A stretch of 64,000 nucleotides of DNA from Patescibacteria group bacterium. Its GTDB lineage: Bacteria > Patescibacteriota > Patescibacteriia > JACRDY01. Below are positions 1,508 through 31,074 of this stretch, piece by piece. Made by a program: the position numbers and the translations under genes. The notes under the pieces were generated by a model. The model was not told the origin of the DNA. It was given only the letters and a program-made list of their open reading frames with translations, and ran no database searches. How positions within the stretch are numbered: the stretch's first letter is position 1; each line of letters begins with the position of its first letter. The stretch lies in assembly GCA_041650515.1 (NCBI GenBank), contig JBAZLA010000005.1, positions 2,034 through 66,033 of the forward strand, given 5' to 3'.

Positions 1508-2272
1508 TTATTTTACAAAGGCGTATTGGCTCCACCAATCCTTGTTATATTGAAGTTCTTCTGGGGACTGAGTTTCGGCTCGCGGTAGATGGGGAGCGAT
1601 AATGCCGGTATAGGCAGTATAGAACTCAGGGGTTTGGCCAGATTTTCTGATGATAGTAATAACTAAATCGTTAGTCTGTGGTGCAGAGATATCCCCGATA
1701 GTATTAATTGTGACTTGATCTTTAGCCTCGCCCTGACCGCGCATTTTTTGGGTAACTTTGTTGGCAACATCCGGAGTAATTTTTATTACCGATGAAGTGC
1801 CAAAACTTTCCTCAGGTGCTAGACCAAAGCGGGTTTTATCGGCGGCGGTAACGGTAATTTGGATATTAGCTCGAGCTTCGTCAGTAGTTTGATTTTTAAT
1901 CCAAATTATTGTTTGGTTGTTTTCTAAAGCTTCAACTAACTTTTCTTGGCAGAATAAAGACAGAGCTTCAGGGTCATTAATCTTAGGATGAAATTTAGAA
2001 CCGGCAGCTTCAAGCTGAGCAGTAATAAATTTTTCGTCAACAACTATTTCATTACCCTCATCATTAATAGTCTGTCCTAGCAATTTAGCTTTAGCTTCTG
2101 GTGAGATATTAGTTAGGTGGCGAGCAACGTGGAGGGTTGATTCAGTTGGGAGTCTAAGGTTATTAATGTCTCTTTGTTCAACATTGCCAGCGGTTTCACC
2201 ATAAAAGCGGACGCCGTTTTGTTCAACGTAAGGAAATGGTTGTTGGCGGCTAGGATCAGTTCTTTCGCTCAT
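1508..2272 (-). CDS. hypothetical protein (254 aa, no recognised domain)
   Basis: Long ORF with a complex, non-repetitive composition. No signal peptide and no known motif recognised. Confidence 0.5.
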   Translation of the reverse strand: MSERTDPSRQQPFPYVEQNGVRFYGETAGNVEQRDINNLRLPTESTLHVARHLTNISPEAKAKLLGQTINDEGNEIVVDEKFITAQLEAAGSKFHPKINDPEALSLFCQEKLVEALENNQTIIWIKNQTTDEARANIQITVTAADKTRFGLAPEESFGTSSVIKITPDVANKVTQKMRGQGEAKDQVTINTIGDISAPQTNDLVITIIRKSGQTPEFYTAYTGIIAPHLPRAETQSPEELQYNKDWWSQYAFVK

Positions 2273-2301
2273 ATTTTTGATTTATTTAGTTAATATCTCT
2301 A

Positions 2302-2416
2302 TCGGGGATGCGGGATCCTTCGTCCCGACTTTACGTCGGGACTCAGGACAAGCCCGAACCCGCGACCTGTCCGATGGACATCGGACCGCGCTAGCCTCTG
2401 CCGGCTGGCGGATGCG
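2302..2416 (-). pseudogene. degenerate tRNA-like copy (T-arm/acceptor of tRNA-Pro) interrupted by a palindromic repeat unit
   Basis: A 29-bp direct repeat, tgtttaatatctctatcggggatgcggga, is shared with the 3' end of the adjacent tRNA-Pro. The T-stem halves GCGGG...CCCGC are retained, but the T-loop carries an inserted hairpin (gtcccgacgtaaagtcgggac gaaggatc). No acceptor 5' strand or canonical anticodon arm could be found. Confidence 0.4.
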
Positions 2417-2435
2417 TTTGTGTTTAATATCTCTA

Positions 2436-2509
2436 TCGGGGATGCGGGACTTGAACCCGCGACCTCACGCACCCGAAGCGTGCGCGCTAGCCAACTGCGC
2501 TAATCCCCG
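2436..2509 (-). tRNA. tRNA-Pro (anticodon CGG)
   Basis: Manual fold of CGGGGATTAGCGCAGTTGGCTAGCGCGCACGCTTCGGGTGCGTGAGGTCGCGGGTTCAAGTCCCGCATCCCCGA: 7-bp acceptor, D-arm GCGC/GCGC, anticodon stem CACGC/GCGTG with loop TTCGGGT (CGG), T-arm GCGGG-TTCAAGT-CCCGC. Confidence 0.8.
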
Positions 2510-3840: not shown

Positions 3841-4043
3841 TGTCATCCTGAGCGGAGCCCCGCCTTTGGCGGGGCGCAGTTGAAGGATCCCTTTTTATGC
3901 CACAAGGATAAATATTTTACTAATGATTATTGGCGGATTAGGCTAATAATATTGAGTATTTTAGTTTATTTGATCAATTAAGTTTGAAATAATTTAATTC
4001 TGAGTGGATGGGAAAGTGATCCTTCACTTCGCTCAGGATGACA
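3841..4043. repeat. MITE-like element with terminal inverted repeats tgtcatcctgagcgg...gaaggatcc / gatccttc...gctcaggatgaca
   Basis: A ~200-bp AT-rich core is flanked by perfect inverted ends (3841-3890 and 4018-4043). The internal motif tttatgccacaagg matches, in inverted orientation, the copy at 28046-28204. Confidence 0.6.
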
Positions 4044-4855: not shown

Positions 4856-6499
4856 ATGCCAAAGTGTAAACATTGTCATCAAGACTTTACCATTGATCAG
4901 CAAGAGCAGCAGTTTTATCAAGAGATAAAAGTACCGACGCCGACCTTTTGTCCGGACTGTCGCCAACAGCGGCGTTTGGCTTGGACTAACGAGCTAACAT
5001 TATATAACCGGAAGTGCGATCTGACTGGCAAAAATGTTATCTCGATGTTCAATCCTGATGTGCCCTTTCCGGTTTATGATTTTCATGAGTGGTGGGGCGA
5101 CAAGTGGGACGCTGGTAAATATGGCGCTGACTATAATCCAGAGCAATCTTTTTTTGACCAATTTATTGCGCTAAAAAATCGCGTGCCCCACCCATCGCTG
5201 GAGGCTAATATCACTCTACAGAATAGCGACTATACTAACTACTGCGGTTATGCGGTTAATTGTTTTTTGATCTTTGATTCGGCTTATACTGAGAATTGTT
5301 ATTATGGTTATACACTAATCCGCTGCAAAGAGGCGGTGGACTGCATGAAGAGCCATGGCTGTGAATACTGTTATTATTGCTCCGATTGTACCAGCTGTTT
5401 CAAACTCAAGTATAGCCAGGACTGCAATAAATGCTCCGAAAGTTATTTCCTTAAATATTGTTCCGGTTGTAACAGTTGTTTTGGTTGTATCAATCTGCGA
5501 AACAAAAGTTATTGTTGGTTAAATAAACAGCTGACGCCGGAAGAATATAATAAGCGATTGGCAATGGTTGATTTTGGCAGTCGGGAAGTAGTGGCTAAAG
5601 TCAAAAGCAAGTTTGATGAATTTTGTCTACGTTATCCGCACATCGCCATTCACGGCATCAAAAACGAGGATTGCAGTGGCGATTATTTGAATAGCACCTT
5701 TCAGACTGTTGCTTCTTATGATTGCCGCGATGTTCAAAATTGCCGCTACTCTTATTCTATCAGTTTGGGCGGCAAGGATGTCTATGATGTGTTTCAATTC
5801 GGCGGCGAGAGCCAGATCTTGTATGAAAGCGTGGTTTCCGGCTATAAAAATTATAACTGCAAATTTTGCTATCAAAGCTATACCAGCGGCCAAAATCTGG
5901 AATATTGCTTCAATTGCCTTGGTTCTAAAAATTGTTTTGGCTGTGTTGGTCTGCGCAAAAGGGAATTTTGTATCCTTAATAAACAATATAGCGAGGCTGA
6001 GTATAACCGGTTAAAAGAAGAGATAATTGTCAAAATGACGGCCACTGGCGAGTACGGCGAGTTTTTACCGGCTTCAATGTCACACCATGGCTATAACGAA
6101 ACCAGCGCCATGTTTTATTATCCTTTAACTAAAGAGCAGGCAACAGCTCAAGGATTTTGGTGGTATGACAAAAAAGTAACTGCGCCGGCGGTTAGTAAAA
6201 TAGTGCCGGATAATATTAAGGAAGTTCCTGACGCAATCACTAGCGATGTTTTTGTTTGTAGTTGTGGCAAGTCTTACCGGGTTACCACCCAGGAGTTAAA
6301 ATTTTATCGTGCTTTTAGTATCCCAGTGCCCGAAAAGTGCTATATTTGTCGTCATGTTGACCGGCTGTTCCAACGTAATCCGCAGCATCTTTGGGAACGT
6401 AGCTGTAGTAAGTGCGGTCGGGCGATGCAGACAACTTATGCTCCAGAGCGGCCGGAAATCGTCTATTGTAAAAAGTGTTTTCAAGATGATGTTTATTGA
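4856..6499 (+). CDS. large cysteine-rich protein, paralog 1 (twin terminal zinc-ribbon-like motifs, C-x2-C repeat core); function unknown
   Basis: 547 aa with >40 Cys. N-terminal CKHC..FY..VP.P.FCPDCRQQRR and C-terminal CSCGK..FYRAF.IPVPEKCYICRH motifs. Internal repeats NCFGC(I/V)(N/G)LR...C(W/I)LNKQ. Paralogous to 6897-8579 and 43278-44951. Confidence 0.7.
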   Translation: MPKCKHCHQDFTIDQQEQQFYQEIKVPTPTFCPDCRQQRRLAWTNELTLYNRKCDLTGKNVISMFNPDVPFPVYDFHEWWGDKWDAGKYGADYNPEQSFFDQFIALKNRVPHPSLEANITLQNSDYTNYCGYAVNCFLIFDSAYTENCYYGYTLIRCKEAVDCMKSHGCEYCYYCSDCTSCFKLKYSQDCNKCSESYFLKYCSGCNSCFGCINLRNKSYCWLNKQLTPEEYNKRLAMVDFGSREVVAKVKSKFDEFCLRYPHIAIHGIKNEDCSGDYLNSTFQTVASYDCRDVQNCRYSYSISLGGKDVYDVFQFGGESQILYESVVSGYKNYNCKFCYQSYTSGQNLEYCFNCLGSKNCFGCVGLRKREFCILNKQYSEAEYNRLKEEIIVKMTATGEYGEFLPASMSHHGYNETSAMFYYPLTKEQATAQGFWWYDKKVTAPAVSKIVPDNIKEVPDAITSDVFVCSCGKSYRVTTQELKFYRAFSIPVPEKCYICRHVDRLFQRNPQHLWERSCSKCGRAMQTTYAPERPEIVYCKKCFQDDVY

Positions 6500-17040: not shown

Positions 17041-19443
17041 TTAATATTTTTTATTTTGGATTAATTTTTCTAGAAGTTCTCTGGGGAAAATTGGTGGAGT
17101 CTCGGCTAGAGCTTGTTGATACAGGACTGTTGAGGGGGTTAAACCTGGCAAGGTGTTGACCTCAATAATTAATAAATCGCCGGTTTGAATATTAACAAAG
17201 GCATCGATTCGGGCATAGCCACGCAGGCCAATTTTTTTGGCTACTAGTTGGATCGATTTTTTTATTTTTGATAATACTGCGGGTTTAATAATATCTTTTG
17301 GCGGCGGGGTGATATTAATTCCAGTGCCGCCTTGGAATTTTTCTTCCACAGTTAGCACCTCCCCTTCTACCACCGTGATACTGGGGTTAAAAGCTTTAAG
17401 CGTGTTGTGATCCTCCACGACGCCAACGGTTATTTCGACCCAGCCGGTACGATGGCCGTGTTTTAATTGATTATTGTGCGCTCGCAGGATGTCAGTATAT
17501 ACAAACTGCTCTAGCAGTAATTCGGTGGGCGGGCTTGGCGGCATTTCGATAATACTTAGCTGGTTTTGAAATGTTTGTTTGGGTATACAGCCATCGCCGG
17601 TGGCGATAATTTTTAGATATTTTGCCAAATCGTTGGCGGAATAAAGATGAGCAATCCCCGTGCTGCAGCCATCGCCGCGCGGTTTGATGATTAATGTTTT
17701 GGCGGTCAGCTCTTTTTGGGCTTTGGTCCAGAGCTGTTCAATTTGTTTTTGGTTAAATTTTATGGCGGTTTTGGTTTTGATTATTTTTCCAGGAACAGAT
17801 TTAACCCCGGGTATTTTTAATTGGTTAATAAAATTGGCCGTTGCCCGTTTATCCATACACAGGCGCGAAGCTTGTTCCTCTGGGCCGTTAAACCGTACTC
17901 CCCTCTTAGTTAGTATTTTTTGGAGGTTGCCGTTTTCACCATCACCACCGTGCAGAGCAATAAAAATGAAATCAGACTCTTTAATCAGTTGATTAAAGTT
18001 TAGTTTCTCCGGCGCAAAAAAATCTTTCTTGTCTTTAATCTCCGTTAAACCAAGGTGTAGCCTGGCTCTTTCCTCGAACGAAGTTAGTCTTTTGGCGGCC
18101 GCTTGATAATGGCGGCAATTTTGGGTGATTTCTTCAACTGTGTGATTAAGACAGAGATGATAGGGCAAGCGCCAGATTAAGCCTTGGGGGTCTAATAAAT
18201 AAGGTTTGGGTTGATATTTAGTTGACCGGCGAAGCTTAAGCCAGACATTAGTGCCGCTCATCAGTGAAACTTGTCTTTCCGAGTCAGCGCCGCCCATCAG
18301 AACACTGACCGGCTGACGACGTGTGGTAATGGTTTTTTGAGCAACCGGAAACGGTATATTATAACGGTTACAAGTTCGTTTGATGATATATTGTAAAACG
18401 TCACTATGCGTTAGGCCGATCCGACTGGCTTGTTGAAAAAGAAAACTATTTTGCTCCATGCCGCTGATCATATTAAAGTCGCAGAACCAGATTTGGCCGT
18501 TGGGTAGTACCCAGCCATCGAACCGGCCAAAATCGCGCATTTTGAATAGTGAAAAAAGTTGTTCACCTTGAGCTTGGATTTTTTCAATTATTTTGTCGTT
18601 AAATCTTGGCGGGCAATGCCAGGTTACTTGGTGGGTGGGTAGATATTTTTTGCGAAAATCAAAAATCTGGTGTTCGGTGTAATCGGTTTCGATCTCGGTT
18701 GGCGGCAGGGCCACGGGTAACCCCAGGTGATTTTCTAAAATAATCATGGTAAATTCTGTGCCTTTGGCAAACGGTTCAATAACCACCCGGTTGGTAGTCC
18801 GCTGGGAAAAAAGTAGTTTAGCTTTAGCTAGAGCCTGGTTCGGAGTGGCCACGGAAAAAACACCAATACTCGAGCCACCAATAGCGGGTTTAACGATCGC
18901 TCGTTTAATTTGATAATTTTTGAAGAATTTTTTCACTATTTGACGGTGGTCGGAATGATTAATTCTGAGCACCGCTGACGGTAGGGTAAAAAATCCTTGT
19001 TGTTTAATAAACTCGTTAGCGATAAATTTATCAAAAGCCTGGCGGCAAGTCGGAGCGCTTGAGCCGACAAAAGGTAAATGGTGCTTTGCCAAAAAACTCT
19101 GGATCTGGCCGTCCTCGCCAAACTGGCCATGCATGGCTGGAAAAGTGATATCTATTTTTTTGAGTAAACTAACTAACCCTTTGGCGGTCAGTGGTTGAGC
19201 GGTTTGTTTGAGTTTAAAATCAAAATCAGATGGCGTGTTGCTATATAATTGAGCTTTGGAAATCTGGTAAGGGTTTTTTTGAGTATCAAAATAAATCGGT
19301 ATAATTTCTATCTGGGCCGATTGTAAGTGATCCATCAGCGACCGGGAAGAATTTAGCGAAATCCCCCGCTCGGCCGAGGGACCGCCGCAGAGAACAGCTA
19401 CTTTTAGTTTGGCTGTTGTTTTTTTTGAGTTAATATTTGACAT
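17041..19443 (-). CDS. ddl: tandem-duplicated D-alanine--D-alanine ligase (two complete ATP-grasp Ddl modules fused, 800 aa)
   Basis: Two Ddl N-terminal signatures (KVAVLCGGPSAERGISLNS and VSVLMGGADSERQVSLMSG). The C-terminal Ddl motif ARIDAFV...IIEVNTLPGLT is complete, and the first half has a diverged ATP-grasp C-terminal region. Confidence 0.8.
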   Translation of the reverse strand: MSNINSKKTTAKLKVAVLCGGPSAERGISLNSSRSLMDHLQSAQIEIIPIYFDTQKNPYQISKAQLYSNTPSDFDFKLKQTAQPLTAKGLVSLLKKIDITFPAMHGQFGEDGQIQSFLAKHHLPFVGSSAPTCRQAFDKFIANEFIKQQGFFTLPSAVLRINHSDHRQIVKKFFKNYQIKRAIVKPAIGGSSIGVFSVATPNQALAKAKLLFSQRTTNRVVIEPFAKGTEFTMIILENHLGLPVALPPTEIETDYTEHQIFDFRKKYLPTHQVTWHCPPRFNDKIIEKIQAQGEQLFSLFKMRDFGRFDGWVLPNGQIWFCDFNMISGMEQNSFLFQQASRIGLTHSDVLQYIIKRTCNRYNIPFPVAQKTITTRRQPVSVLMGGADSERQVSLMSGTNVWLKLRRSTKYQPKPYLLDPQGLIWRLPYHLCLNHTVEEITQNCRHYQAAAKRLTSFEERARLHLGLTEIKDKKDFFAPEKLNFNQLIKESDFIFIALHGGDGENGNLQKILTKRGVRFNGPEEQASRLCMDKRATANFINQLKIPGVKSVPGKIIKTKTAIKFNQKQIEQLWTKAQKELTAKTLIIKPRGDGCSTGIAHLYSANDLAKYLKIIATGDGCIPKQTFQNQLSIIEMPPSPPTELLLEQFVYTDILRAHNNQLKHGHRTGWVEITVGVVEDHNTLKAFNPSITVVEGEVLTVEEKFQGGTGINITPPPKDIIKPAVLSKIKKSIQLVAKKIGLRGYARIDAFVNIQTGDLLIIEVNTLPGLTPSTVLYQQALAETPPIFPRELLEKLIQNKKY

Positions 19444-22842: not shown

Positions 22843-22982
22843 TGTCATCCTGAGTCACGCGTAGCGGGACGAAGGATCAGCCTGTTTCTGCTAACGAGCC
22901 GATTCTTCGCTCCGCTCAGAATGACATATTGGGAATGCTTCGCGGAGTTTATCCTGAACGAAGTGAAGGACTTAGGATGACA
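22843..22982. repeat. composite palindromic repeat (two nested units of the tgtcatcctgag...gaaggatc family)
   Basis: tgtcatcctgagtcacgcgtagcgggacgaaggatc, then gcctgtttctgctaacgagccgattcttcgctccgctcagaatgaca, then gcggagtttatcctgaacgaagtgaaggacttaggatgacag. Confidence 0.55.
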
Positions 22983-28045: not shown

Positions 28046-28260
28046 GTCATCCTGAGCGGAGCGAAGGATCCCTCTCCTCTCCACGTCCAGGAAAATTACT
28101 CAAATAAATCTTTTAGGTTTGTTAGCTAGTAATCTTTAATATGATATTCAACCTTGTGGCATAAAGAGGGATCCTTCGTTCCGCTACGCGGGACTCAGGA
28201 TGACAAATTGGATGGGCAAAGCGGAGTTTATCCTGAGTCCTTCGCTGCGCTCGCAATGAC
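28046..28260. repeat. MITE-like element (tgtcatcctgagcggagcgaaggatccc ... ggactcaggatgaca) plus an adjacent gcggagtttatcctga...gcaatgac unit
   Basis: Inverted termini at 28046-28073 and 28180-28204 bracket an AT-rich core containing ccttgtggcataaa, the inverse of the motif in copy 3841-4043. The second unit is at 28205-28260. Confidence 0.6.
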
Positions 28261-28870: not shown

Positions 28871-29524
28871 AATATGGTGGGTTACTTCTTTCTCCAATTG
28901 TTTAATAAAATTGGTCATTAATTTGGCCAGCGGTCGGGCAATTTTTTTAGCCGTTGGTGTAGCTACATTATCCAGACAGCTAGCTTGAAAATTTAATTCA
29001 TCGACTAAGTATTGACCAACACCTTGACCCTTAGCAAAACGTTTGTTAAAACCCAGGCTATCTAACTTCCAAGTTGGGCCTTTGATATTGTGGGGATCGT
29101 ATTTTAGCCAAGTTGTGCAAGTGTCACAGGCGCGAATAATCCCAATTGTGCCTAATAAATCTAGAATATCAGCATCTTTTAAAATCGCAGTCAGTCCTTG
29201 GCCTTTACCGCCGGTATTGTGCTCGGCAATTGCTTGTTCAACTTTTTTGGTTTTATCCTCGGATAATATTTTTAATCTTCTTAGATATTGACCAGCAATT
29301 TTGGCGCCTGCCCGCCCGTGTTCTCGCTGATTAGTAACGAACGGTCGGCCGATATCGTGCATCAAAGCGGCGATTTCCACCATTTTTAGATCTGGATATT
29401 TTTCTTTTTTGGCAATTAAGACGGCCCATTGGCGCACGCGATCAACATGATCATAGTCGTGAGTCGTTTGGCTTTTGCTTATTTTTTGAACGTACTGCTC
29501 AATTTTTTTGATTTGATTTTTCAT
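28868..29524 (-). CDS. HD-domain phosphohydrolase
   Basis: HDYDHVDRV ... ALMHDIGR motifs. 218 aa. Confidence 0.75.
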   Translation of the reverse strand: MKNQIKKIEQYVQKISKSQTTHDYDHVDRVRQWAVLIAKKEKYPDLKMVEIAALMHDIGRPFVTNQREHGRAGAKIAGQYLRRLKILSEDKTKKVEQAIAEHNTGGKGQGLTAILKDADILDLLGTIGIIRACDTCTTWLKYDPHNIKGPTWKLDSLGFNKRFAKGQGVGQYLVDELNFQASCLDNVATPTAKKIARPLAKLMTNFIKQLEKEVTHHI

Positions 29525-31074
29525 TTTGTCGCTTCAGCTAAACGCTTTGCCACCAAGTCATAATCAAGTGAAGCCAAAAGCCAGCCGGCTTGGGGGCCAG
29601 AATCTTTACCTAAGAAAATCTGGTAAATGGCACTAAAAAATTCTTTGGGGTCAGCGGCTTGATTGGTTTTAATTTGGTGCAAAGCGCTATGTAAATTTTC
29701 GCCAGTCCATTTTTTTTGGGTTTGAAAAGTTTTTAATAGTTCGGCTAATAATTCCTTTTGTTTGATCGCTAAATTTAGAGTTGGCAGTTTTTCCAAGACG
29801 TTAAATTTATAATTATCCGGGGCATAAGTACTAAGCCATTTTTTGGCATAGTCAGCGCGGGTTTGGATTTCAGCCTTTTCTGAAGCGGTTAATTTACTCC
29901 CCTTTTCGGTTTGGGCATAATCATAGATATCGGCCCGAGGCATTTGTAATAAATAAGCGATTTTGGAAAAACGCAAACGATAGACCGGCGGCGGTTGGGT
30001 GGTTAATTTGGCATATTCATAGGCCTGACCAAAATCCGATTCGGGGTCAGCAAAATAAGCGTCAATACAGCGGTCTAATTCGTCATAGAGCCGGGGTACG
30101 GCTTCGCCTTCCAGGGTAAATTCGATGCGCGTTTTAGCTTTAGTCCGCATCATTAGAAAGCGTACTAGTTCGGCCGGTAATAGTTCGACAATGTCGCTAG
30201 CGGAAATTCCCACACCTTTGGATGAACTCATTTTTTTGCCGCCATCAATCATTAGCCATTCGTAAATATGGCCAAAAGCGGGCTGAATTTTAAAAACTTT
30301 TTGAGCAATTTCTCGTGCCACATAAAAACTGCCGCCCTTAGTATAGTGGTCAAGGCCAGCTAGCTCTACTTTAGTTCTGCGAAAAAGCCAACGGGCAACA
30401 ATAGCTAGCTTGTAAGGTAGTTTGGCATTGCCATCAAAAGGTGAAATTTGGCCCTGATAGCCACAGCCAGCGGCCCACTCCACCATTTTTGGTTCGCAAG
30501 TAAAAGTAACAAGTTTACCGTCCCAAGCCGTGACTTTGGTGGTTAGTTTGCCGCACTTAGGACAGACAACGTTCAAAGCGTGCCAATTAGCGTCTTTGAC
30601 TGAGCCCGAGATTTCTTTATAAATTTTTCTGATTTCGGCGGCATTATCTAAAGTTATTTTGATCGCGTCATTGTATTCGCCTTTTTTATAGCTTTCGGAA
30701 TCCCAGACAATTTTGGGTTGGGCACCTAGCTGGTTAAAAACTCTCAAAAAGTCTTGAGCATAATAATCAGCGTAACTTTTATAGCCTGGCTCGGGCGAGG
30801 GAATATTACAAAGTGGCAGACCCATATATTGGCGATAGACTTTTTCGTCTAAGTAAGCCGGTAGGCCGTCCATCGGATCAAAATCGTCAAAACCATAAAG
30901 ATATTCGGTTTTGGCTTTAGCCTTTTTTAAACCGAGGTAAATGGCATCATGAATCAAAACCCCGCGGAGCGAGCCAACATGGACTTTACCTGATGGAGTT
31001 TTATAATCGGTGACCAAATAGCTTTTGGCTTCTTGCTCGAGGATTTTTTGTACTTCTTCGTTAACCCAAAACAT
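29521..31074 (-). CDS. lysS: lysine--tRNA ligase, class I (archaeal-type LysK)
   Basis: Class I signature PSGKVHVGSLRG (HIGH-like) and KMSSSKG (KMSKS). ~517 aa, typical of class I LysRS. No class II motifs. Confidence 0.8.
   Translation of the reverse strand: MFWVNEEVQKILEQEAKSYLVTDYKTPSGKVHVGSLRGVLIHDAIYLGLKKAKAKTEYLYGFDDFDPMDGLPAYLDEKVYRQYMGLPLCNIPSPEPGYKSYADYYAQDFLRVFNQLGAQPKIVWDSESYKKGEYNDAIKITLDNAAEIRKIYKEISGSVKDANWHALNVVCPKCGKLTTKVTAWDGKLVTFTCEPKMVEWAAGCGYQGQISPFDGNAKLPYKLAIVARWLFRRTKVELAGLDHYTKGGSFYVAREIAQKVFKIQPAFGHIYEWLMIDGGKKMSSSKGVGISASDIVELLPAELVRFLMMRTKAKTRIEFTLEGEAVPRLYDELDRCIDAYFADPESDFGQAYEYAKLTTQPPPVYRLRFSKIAYLLQMPRADIYDYAQTEKGSKLTASEKAEIQTRADYAKKWLSTYAPDNYKFNVLEKLPTLNLAIKQKELLAELLKTFQTQKKWTGENLHSALHQIKTNQAADPKEFFSAIYQIFLGKDSGPQAGWLLASLDYDLVAKRLAEATK

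Follow-up and report, generated by a model that had tools for sequence, protein, structure and literature searches.

Why does a working tRNA gene stand beside a broken version of itself whose arms are filled with other sequence? The question is raised by a locus in a member of the Patescibacteria (Candidate Phyla Radiation, CPR), a tiny groundwater bacterium, in which an intact tRNA-Pro(CGG) gene is accompanied by a degenerate copy (2290-2417) on the minus strand. Both lie in a stretch of 64,000 nucleotides of contig JBAZLA010000005.1, referred to here as the window. A preliminary description of this DNA had noted a duplicated tRNA 3' end and a palindromic repeat in the T loop of the degenerate version, and had offered as explanations a remnant attachment (att) site, a segmental duplication, or palindromic repeats that target tRNA-like structures. 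Our analysis indicates that the copy is probably a non-functional tandem paralogue (pseudogene) of tRNA-Pro(CGG), colonised by palindromes favouring hairpin loops. Similar broken copies accompany proline tRNA genes in related genomes, which points to a recurrent hot spot rather than to the scar of an inserted virus.

Anatomy of the degenerate copy

The functional gene is intact, as first described, and is the sole tRNA that ARAGORN and the Rfam tRNA model find in the window; CCA is not encoded in it, and neither tool detects a transfer-messenger RNA in the window. The copy lies directly behind it in the same orientation, beginning 12 nt past the 3' end of the gene, and is collinear with it over the stretch between the D stem and the twelfth nucleotide beyond that end, the arrangement of a tandem pseudogene. 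Three perfect blocks (10/10, 13/13, and 26/26 nt) carry this alignment. The longest, at 2290-2315 and 2424-2449, consists of TCCCGCATCCCCGA and the 12-nt trailer and is the direct repeat previously given as 29 bp: the repeat is real, but its exact length is 26 bp, and the 29-mer matches at 27 of 29 positions ('tag' at 2287-2289 against 'tgt' at 2421-2423). No shuffle of the window yielded an 18-mer from this repeat twice. The other two blocks are GAACCCGCGACCT (2356-2368 and 2453-2465) and CGCGCTAGCC (2387-2396 and 2483-2492).

In a gap-tolerant alignment, the copy has extra sequence only at the D and T loops and at the anticodon arm, and all three cloverleaf arms hold an added or substituted GC-rich segment. 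The repeats are 134 bp apart; once the 53 extra nt are subtracted, a period of 81 bp remains, and the DNA between the two repeats is fully accounted for by the copy itself. This period makes a simple tandem duplication, one that spans the DNA between roughly tRNA position 10 and trailer position +12, the simplest origin, which bears out the segmental duplication listed among the early proposals.

The T loop does carry a hairpin of the repeat family reported there, at a size that needs correction from ~37 nt: the insert measures 40 nt (2316-2355), and the two-tier hairpin inside it 33 nt (2316-2348; DNA fold -12 kcal/mol, z -3.9). At the position of the anticodon arm stands a hairpin with a 7-bp stem and a 4-nt loop, and the 5-bp stem and 7-nt anticodon loop are missing. 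The D-loop segment was dropped as a true hairpin, its fold being unconvincing, and is kept as a relative of better palindromes that occupy the same position of tRNA-Pro fragments in two related loci (TCCGCCAGTTGGCGGA in L171 and TCCGCCTGCTGGCAGA in L002). Perfect GC-rich hairpins with a stem of at least 8 bp number seven in 64 kb, two of them within the ~130-nt copy, and the whole region folds much better than shuffles (z -4.7). A separate assembly, Logan contig L001 (SRR8542065), which may share reads with the metagenome-assembled genome (MAG), is identical across the copy into the real tRNA.

This anatomy bears on whether the copy could still be a working tRNA gene with an intron in it, or else an artefact of assembly. 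Archaeal tRNAs can have introns in the T loop, and the T stem, variable loop, and acceptor 3' strand of the copy are intact. However, ARAGORN with its intron search predicts no tRNA in the native copy or in two constructs from which the T-loop and D-loop inserts had been removed in silico, and relaxed thresholds give only junk calls. Similarly, Infernal finds no match to RF00005 (gathering threshold of 29 bits) on 2290-2423 up to an E-value of 10. The acceptor 5' strand is absent, as the preliminary description had stated, since between the D-stem remnant and the trailer of the working gene there are only six unrelated nucleotides (2418-2423); nothing complementary to ATCCCCG occurs upstream of the copy, and the 7-bp acceptor stem cannot form. 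With no 7-nt anticodon loop either, the intron reading is refuted, and, given the identical second assembly, an intron or artefact of any kind is highly improbable.

Other identities of the copy were considered and set aside. A relic of a neighbouring tRNA-Pro(UGG) paralogue, of the kind seen in L031 and L100, is rejected on account of the identity of the blocks and trailer to the CGG gene. An Rfam scan of the window and 11 related loci, with gathering and E-value thresholds, returned only tRNA, the sub-threshold matches to mir-2071, sX14, and YrlA being due to chance or to overlap with the real tRNA. A replication origin or terminus at the locus was likewise set aside, with no skew inflection there. 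As a separate observation, the leader (2510-2522) and trailer (2424-2435) of the real tRNA-Pro are imperfectly complementary (~10/12), which lengthens the acceptor helix; the duplicated trailer belongs to this leader/trailer inverted repeat (I1/I2).

A palindrome family in the window

The repeat family to which the T-loop hairpin had been assigned is genuine. The pattern TCCTTCG..CTCAGGA occurs three times against 0.01 expected, and a looser pattern yields eight members in the window, all intergenic (Table 1). These elements resemble repetitive extragenic palindromic (REP) sequences and are called REP-like here. The family shares a conserved outer clamp, GTCA-TCCTGAG ... CGAAGGA-TC, around a variable core. 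The longer members have more stable folds than shuffled sequence (z -2.1 to -3.9), unlike the minimal 19-nt member at 28050-28068 (z -0.3). In the members starting at 22848, 28172, 3846, and 2316, a second hairpin is nested in the clamp loop, and palindrome-in-loop nesting is therefore a property of the REP-like family itself. Copies of opposite orientation are found together in three clusters (3846/4020, 22848/22903/22952, and 28050/28172), with unconserved spacers of 27-132 nt; the clusters are reminiscent of the inverted REP doublets known as REPINs (PMC3337134, PMC3116915), while the T-loop copy stands alone. The tetranucleotide GTAG is found in the loop of copies 22848 and 28172, and the T-loop copy has GTAAA instead.

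A Pfam scan covered 55 of the 59 window open reading frames (ORFs) of at least 100 aa and returned only housekeeping genes, among them rarA, rluB, several aminoacyl-tRNA synthetases, cell-wall and glycosyltransferase genes, priA, and mreB. Neither genes for an integrase, a recombinase, or a transposase nor phage genes turned up in the scanned ORFs, and the same holds for a REP-associated tyrosine transposase (RAYT, a Y1 HUH transposase).

Table 1. Features of the tRNA-Pro(CGG) locus, members of the REP-like family in the window, and T-loop insertions in related loci
Feature	Position or locus	Strand	Evidence or remark
Functional tRNA-Pro(CGG)	2436..2509	-	ARAGORN; RF00005, 64.5 bits vs gathering score 29
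3' trailer of the functional gene, 12 nt, tagagatattaa, within the 26-bp direct repeat	2424..2435	-	repeat D1, inverted repeats I1/I2
Duplication junction, 6 nt acacaa, unlike an acceptor 5' strand	2418..2423	-	sequence, alignment
D-stem 5' strand remnant and A14, ACGCA vs GCGCA in the gene, 4/5	2413..2417	-	read by eye; the aligner placed the bases differently
Degenerate 16-nt palindrome TCCGCCAGCCGGCAGA in place of D-loop GTT	2397..2412	-	sequence; folds weakly, z -0.5
D-loop 3' part, D-stem 3' strand, G26, GGCTAGCGCG, 10/10 vs gene	2387..2396	-	repeat D9
Perfect 18-nt hairpin GTCCGAT GTCC ATCGGAC replacing the 17-nt anticodon arm	2369..2386	-	DNA fold z -2.8; unique in window
Variable loop, T-stem 5' strand, T-loop TTC, AGGTCGCGGGTTC, 13/13 vs gene	2356..2368	-	repeat D4, alignment
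40-nt T-loop insert replacing AAG, REP-like member GTC(A)TCCTGAG-(inner hairpin)-CGAAGGATC	2316..2355	-	pattern search, alignment, folding
Last T-loop base, T-stem 3' strand, acceptor 3' strand, discriminator, 12-nt trailer, 26/26	2290..2315	-	repeat D1; shuffle test
T-loop REP-like member (the insert listed above), singleton	2316	-	T-loop insert of the copy
REP-like member between convergent rarA and rluB; long inner hairpin nested in outer clamp	3846..3887	+	pattern search, folding
REP-like member, minimal form	4020..4038	-	looser pattern
REP-like member	22848..22876	+	both patterns, folding
REP-like member, TTCTGAG..CGAAGAA variant	22903..22921	-	looser pattern
REP-like member, degenerate	22952..22970	+	looser pattern
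REP-like member, minimal form, 5-nt core	28050..28068	+	looser pattern; z -0.3
REP-like member	28172..28200	-	both patterns, folding
T-loop insertion	L016		30 nt after TT
T-loop insertion	L083		49 nt after TT
T-loop insertion	L088		52 nt after TT
T-loop insertion	L011		84 nt after TTCG

Proline tRNA loci in related genomes and the origin of the copy

We collected 178 related loci, of which 168 were kept together with the window after duplicate removal, and ARAGORN identified 73 tRNAs in them. A fragment was counted when blastn of the adjacent tRNA gave a match with E < 0.01 within 500 nt. By this measure, fragments lie at most 500 nt from 14 of 24 tRNA-Pro(CGG/UGG) genes vs 1 of 49 other tRNAs (Fisher p = 7e-8), in a census that, being anchored on rarA neighbourhoods, over-represents CPR tRNA-Pro relative to other tRNAs. 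None of five tRNA-Pro(GGG) genes had a fragment. Despite this bias, no fragments accompany the other tRNAs at loci with a RarA as near to that of the window as in the fragment-bearing loci (L016, L019, L024, L092, L100, L110, and L118). The RarA of the window is 76% identical to that of the Patescibacteria MAG L002, 74% to that of the Falkowbacteria MAG L003, and 84% to that of the JGI contig L171; a metagenome scan with RarA reached 69% at best, and the nearer relatives (84-85%) came from a protein search.

Insertion of hairpins into loops recurs in these relatives. Downstream 3' fragments of four other species (L016, L083, L088, and L011) have hairpins inserted in the T loop at the points given in Table 1; in the window, the insertion follows TTC. 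Locus L002 contains a full-length tandem copy (copy 3) in which the acceptor stem is perfect, the CGG anticodon arm complete, and both CCA and the D stem kept, followed by a terminator; its D loop has a 29-nt insertion, and its T arm has been swapped for GTCCGCCGCGGCGGAC. In L176, a full-length degenerate copy, seen by eye in addition to the fragments counted above, shares the trailer of the gene; its anticodon arm has given way to unrelated sequence of equal length, and a hairpin stands in for its T arm. Both full-length copies have flanks in common with their gene. The T-arm replacements in L002 and L176 change 17 nt to 16 or 17 nt. The closest relative is L171. There, a 5' half located upstream has hairpins inserted at three points, namely behind the 5' strand of the D stem, in the D loop, and in the anticodon loop, and this part is confirmed by a second assembly. 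Behind the same tRNA-Pro (L171:3460-3705, minus strand) lie two 120-bp units in perfect tandem; each comprises a 3' half, which holds a nested hairpin of 57 nt, and 25 nt of trailer. These units could mark recent amplification or an assembly collapse or expansion. Upstream 5' fragments are also present in L011 and L115. By contrast, L174 has a clean tRNA-Pro with a terminator and no fragment, an 'empty' state.

Nearly all inserted hairpins start with TCC and finish with GGA, with families that differ by lineage: TCCGCC..GGCGGA in L002, L003, L016, L088, and L171, and TCCTGAG..CGAAGGA in the window. No feature of the copies is conserved across species: 5' halves, 3' halves, and full-length copies, upstream and downstream positions, and the palindromes themselves all differ. 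In L088, one fragment is 27/28 identical to the 5' part of the window tRNA and unlike the resident gene, and another has the same ending as the L002 gene; the fragments therefore include old alleles or imports. In the same locus (L088:3730-3870, minus strand), the functional tRNA-Pro is placed between 11-bp perfect inverted repeats (TCCCGCACCTT ... AAGGTGCGGGA), which interrupt an apparent older tRNA-Pro whose 5' half lies upstream and whose 3' half, with its T-loop insertion, lies downstream.

These data allow the first of the early proposals to be weighed, that of a remnant att site. Under this explanation, a tyrosine-integrase element recombined at the T loop or 3' end of tRNA-Pro and duplicated its 3' part, and the cargo was then lost, leaving ~130 bp. 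The tRNA 3' end is indeed present as a 26-bp direct repeat. Integration is known to leave tRNA fragments behind (PMC9897764), and attB sites in T loops are documented (PMC1762012). Specificity for one isotype is what an integrase family would produce, and the L088 fragments stem from tRNA-Pro alleles other than the resident gene. Synteny with the closest relatives also breaks exactly at the locus: with L002 and L003, it is retained on the rarA-rluB side and gone beyond the tRNA. There, directly downstream of the copy, lies ORF254 (1508-2272, minus strand), which has no Pfam domain. Only six homologues of ORF254 were found among 5.8 billion proteins, and none provided an orthologous locus; where longer contigs exist, they stand between glutamate dehydrogenase and LeuRS, with no tRNA there. 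Because these homologues sit elsewhere, the arrangement in the window is lineage-specific.

Against integration, however, no integrase or phage gene was found among the scanned window ORFs or beside the L002 fragments, and the tRNA 3' end, as a candidate phage attachment site (attP), has no match in IMG/VR, where no viral contig carries it. Identity of the copy reaches the D arm (tRNA positions 17-26), far 5' of a crossover in the T or anticodon loop, and includes 12 nt of trailer, while the 81-bp period leaves nothing foreign between the repeats. Integration that replaces the 3' part does not predict the full-length tandem copies of L002 and L176 or the upstream 5' fragments of L011, L115, and L171, and an attR site would keep its T loop intact rather than insert-bearing. 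The lack of integrase and cargo, the extent of the copy to the D arm, the 81-bp period, and the 5' fragments and full-length copies of relatives together weaken this explanation, and we regard a scar of integration as unlikely.

The tandem-pseudogene explanation can be rationalized into a series of events. A slipped or illegitimate duplication of 81 bp would have given rise to a copy devoid of a 5' acceptor strand from the outset. A weak palindrome may then have entered the D loop of the copy, a perfect hairpin of nearly equal length would have replaced its anticodon arm, and a member of the REP-like family GTCATCCTGAG..CGAAGGATC would have entered its T loop. The same kind of event appears to recur at tRNA-Pro(CGG/UGG) in related Patescibacteria, with lineage-specific palindrome families. 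Its recurrence in relatives, the differing palindrome families, and the nesting within the REP-like family argue for a loop-favouring process, in which palindromes may preferentially insert, or get copied, into the single-stranded loops of DNA hairpins. Selection would remove insertions from the working gene, so that only redundant copies would accumulate palindromes. As to the responsible enzyme, our guess is a REPIN/RAYT-like or IS200/IS605-like single-strand transposase. The early suggestion that the palindromes target tRNA-like structures thus survives in modified form: the D-loop and T-loop insertions and the replaced anticodon arm of the window copy, the T-loop hairpins of the four other species, and the nesting of the family agree with it.

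Several observations weigh against this account. The 49 retained nucleotides are without point substitutions, yet three large changes have accumulated beside them. Such blocks are odd for neutral decay and need a very recent duplication with fast palindrome invasion, gene conversion, or selection. Loop-targeting alone does not account for the restriction to tRNA-Pro, other tRNAs having the same loops, and the census, being anchored on rarA, is itself weighted towards tRNA-Pro of the CPR. The anticodon arm in the window and the T arm in L002 and L176 were replaced by hairpins of near-equal length, not simply inserted into, which looks as if secondary structure had been preserved. In addition, the D-loop 'palindrome' folds no better than shuffles, and no transposase for the palindromes was found among the scanned ORFs.

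Three of these points, namely the restriction to proline, the substitution-free blocks, and the same-size replacement of arms, keep alive a functional alternative. The copy would then be a structured RNA derived from tRNA-Pro, for instance an element for transcript processing or stability, a leader of the downstream ORF, a decoy, or a non-translational tRNA mimic, with its blocks kept while its loops were replaced by stable hairpins. Its retained blocks are 100% identical to the gene, hairpin size is maintained where arms were replaced (18 nt for 17 nt in the window, 16 or 17 nt for the 17-nt T arms of L002 and L176), the region folds far beyond shuffles, and the phenomenon recurs across many lineages. 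The full-length L002 copy, with its intact acceptor stem, CCA, CGG anticodon arm, terminator, and a hairpin other than a T loop as T arm, fits this reading, and a functional pseudo-tRNA of Bacillus cereus (PMC3399842) offers a precedent. On the other hand, the copies lack any cross-species conserved feature, the window copy has no possible acceptor stem and no anticodon loop, no Rfam family matches, neither a promoter of its own nor a terminator after it is predicted, and L174 does without any copy. We consider a functional RNA doubtful.

A broader proposal, which we hold possible but tentative, is that tRNA-Pro(CGG/UGG) in Patescibacteria is the specific substrate of a recurrent process directed by structure, in which partial tandem copies are made and their cloverleaf loops are colonised by GC-rich palindromes, nearly all of the form TCC..GGA, that nest in each other's loops. 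Behind it would stand either a loop-targeting mobile-palindrome system or an unrecognised family of structured RNA derived from tRNA-Pro.

Some relatives differ in other ways. Inverted T-arm pieces in L029, L031, and L100 were first taken as acceptor/T minihelices and dropped, as their T loop is present as the reverse complement and they are therefore inverted copies at the DNA level. Another type of element was observed in L100 (2740-2900, 3795-4045, and 4122-4480), downstream of tRNA-Arg(TCG), tRNA-Pro(UGG), and tRNA-Pro(CGG). It is built, in order, from a bidirectional terminator, an inverted copy of the acceptor 3' strand of its own tRNA, a hairpin, an inverted T arm, and a conserved module (..CGGAG..hairpin with AGTA/AGCA loop..AAGCGAGNNNGTGCCCAG) whose hairpin stem covaries between copies. 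Three occurrences of AAGCGAGNNNGTGCCCAG were found in L100 and none in the other loci, the module after tRNA-Pro(CGG) is more diverged, and no Rfam family matches the module.

Upstream of rarA, L178 and L179, two of the relatives with a RarA identity of 84-85%, show no tRNA region: L178 stops 25 nt upstream, and the 169 nt available in L179 are not tRNA-like. The short contigs of relatives L173, L175, and L178 terminate within or just before the tRNA-Pro region, and contig ends there are consistent with repeats that disrupt short-read assemblies. In practice, such copies give rise to breaks between contigs of CPR MAGs and to tRNA calls that are false or missing.

Elsewhere in the window, three genes deserve mention. 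An 800-aa ORF (17041-19443, minus strand) matches the N domain and the C domain of D-Ala-D-Ala ligase in two stretches each and appears to be a tandem-fused double Ddl, adjoining alanine racemase. A 547-aa cysteine-rich protein (4856-6499, plus strand), overlapped by long antisense ORFs, has a treble-clef zinc finger as its only Pfam match. A class I (archaeal-type) lysyl-tRNA synthetase (PF01921) is encoded at 29521-31074 (minus strand).

Comparison with known systems

The tRNA fragments left by integrative elements share with this locus a direct repeat of the 3' part beside an intact tRNA, a preference for one isotype, and a break in synteny. They differ in that here neither an integrase (in the scanned ORFs) nor cargo was found, identity continues as far as the D arm with an 81-bp period, the T loop is interrupted, and relatives have 5' fragments and full-length copies.

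REP and REPIN elements, which are mobilised by RAYT transposases (PMC3337134, PMC3116915, and PMC3733652), are likewise short, GC-rich, imperfect palindromes, present in many copies and intergenic; the opposite-orientation clusters of the window recall their inverted pairs, with spacers that are not conserved. Unlike them, the window family is conserved in an outer clamp, which has tandem G-A mismatches, and varies in its inner hairpin, and no RAYT accompanies it in the scanned ORFs. The REP tag, GTAG or CGTC, stands at one end (PMC3733652); in the window, GTAG is found in the loop of two copies and not as an end tag. No description of REP insertion into the loops of a tRNA-like cloverleaf was found in the literature searched.

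Duplication of tRNA genes has been observed in bacteria (PMC7661048). In the tRNA pseudogenes produced by tandem duplication and random loss in animal mitochondria (PMC4223735), a tandem copy similarly decays beside the functional gene while recognisable blocks remain. The present case differs in its bacterial chromosome, in the replacement of loops by palindromes rather than point mutation or deletion, and in its recurrence at one isotype.

Archaeal tRNA introns also interrupt the T loop of a tRNA-like sequence. Here, in contrast, the host is a bacterium, there is no bulge-helix-bulge, 5' half, or anticodon loop, and removal of the insert restores no tRNA. A further comparison is with the palindromic elements that Ogata et al. 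are said to have described in 2000, inserted in genes of Rickettsia. These elements, about 100-150 bp long, lie in frame in functional genes of a reduced genome. In both cases, palindromic mobile repeats enter structured or coding genes, but the target here is a dead tRNA copy, and the inserts measure 16-40 nt.

Integration fragments of tRNAs, REP/REPIN elements, and mitochondrial tandem tRNA pseudogenes are each already well known; their combination, in which isotype-specific, recurrent partial tandem copies have cloverleaf loops filled with palindromes, was not found described in the literature searched. Taken alone, the feature in the window is a tRNA pseudogene with repeat insertions and of modest interest, and the comparison across genomes is of greater use: within one CPR branch, the tRNA-Pro(CGG/UGG) locus repeatedly yields partial copies, the loops or arms of which are repeatedly replaced by palindromes of differing families. 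If loop-specific insertion is true, it would show how REP-like elements choose their targets in extremely compact genomes and explain the assembly breaks at this locus.

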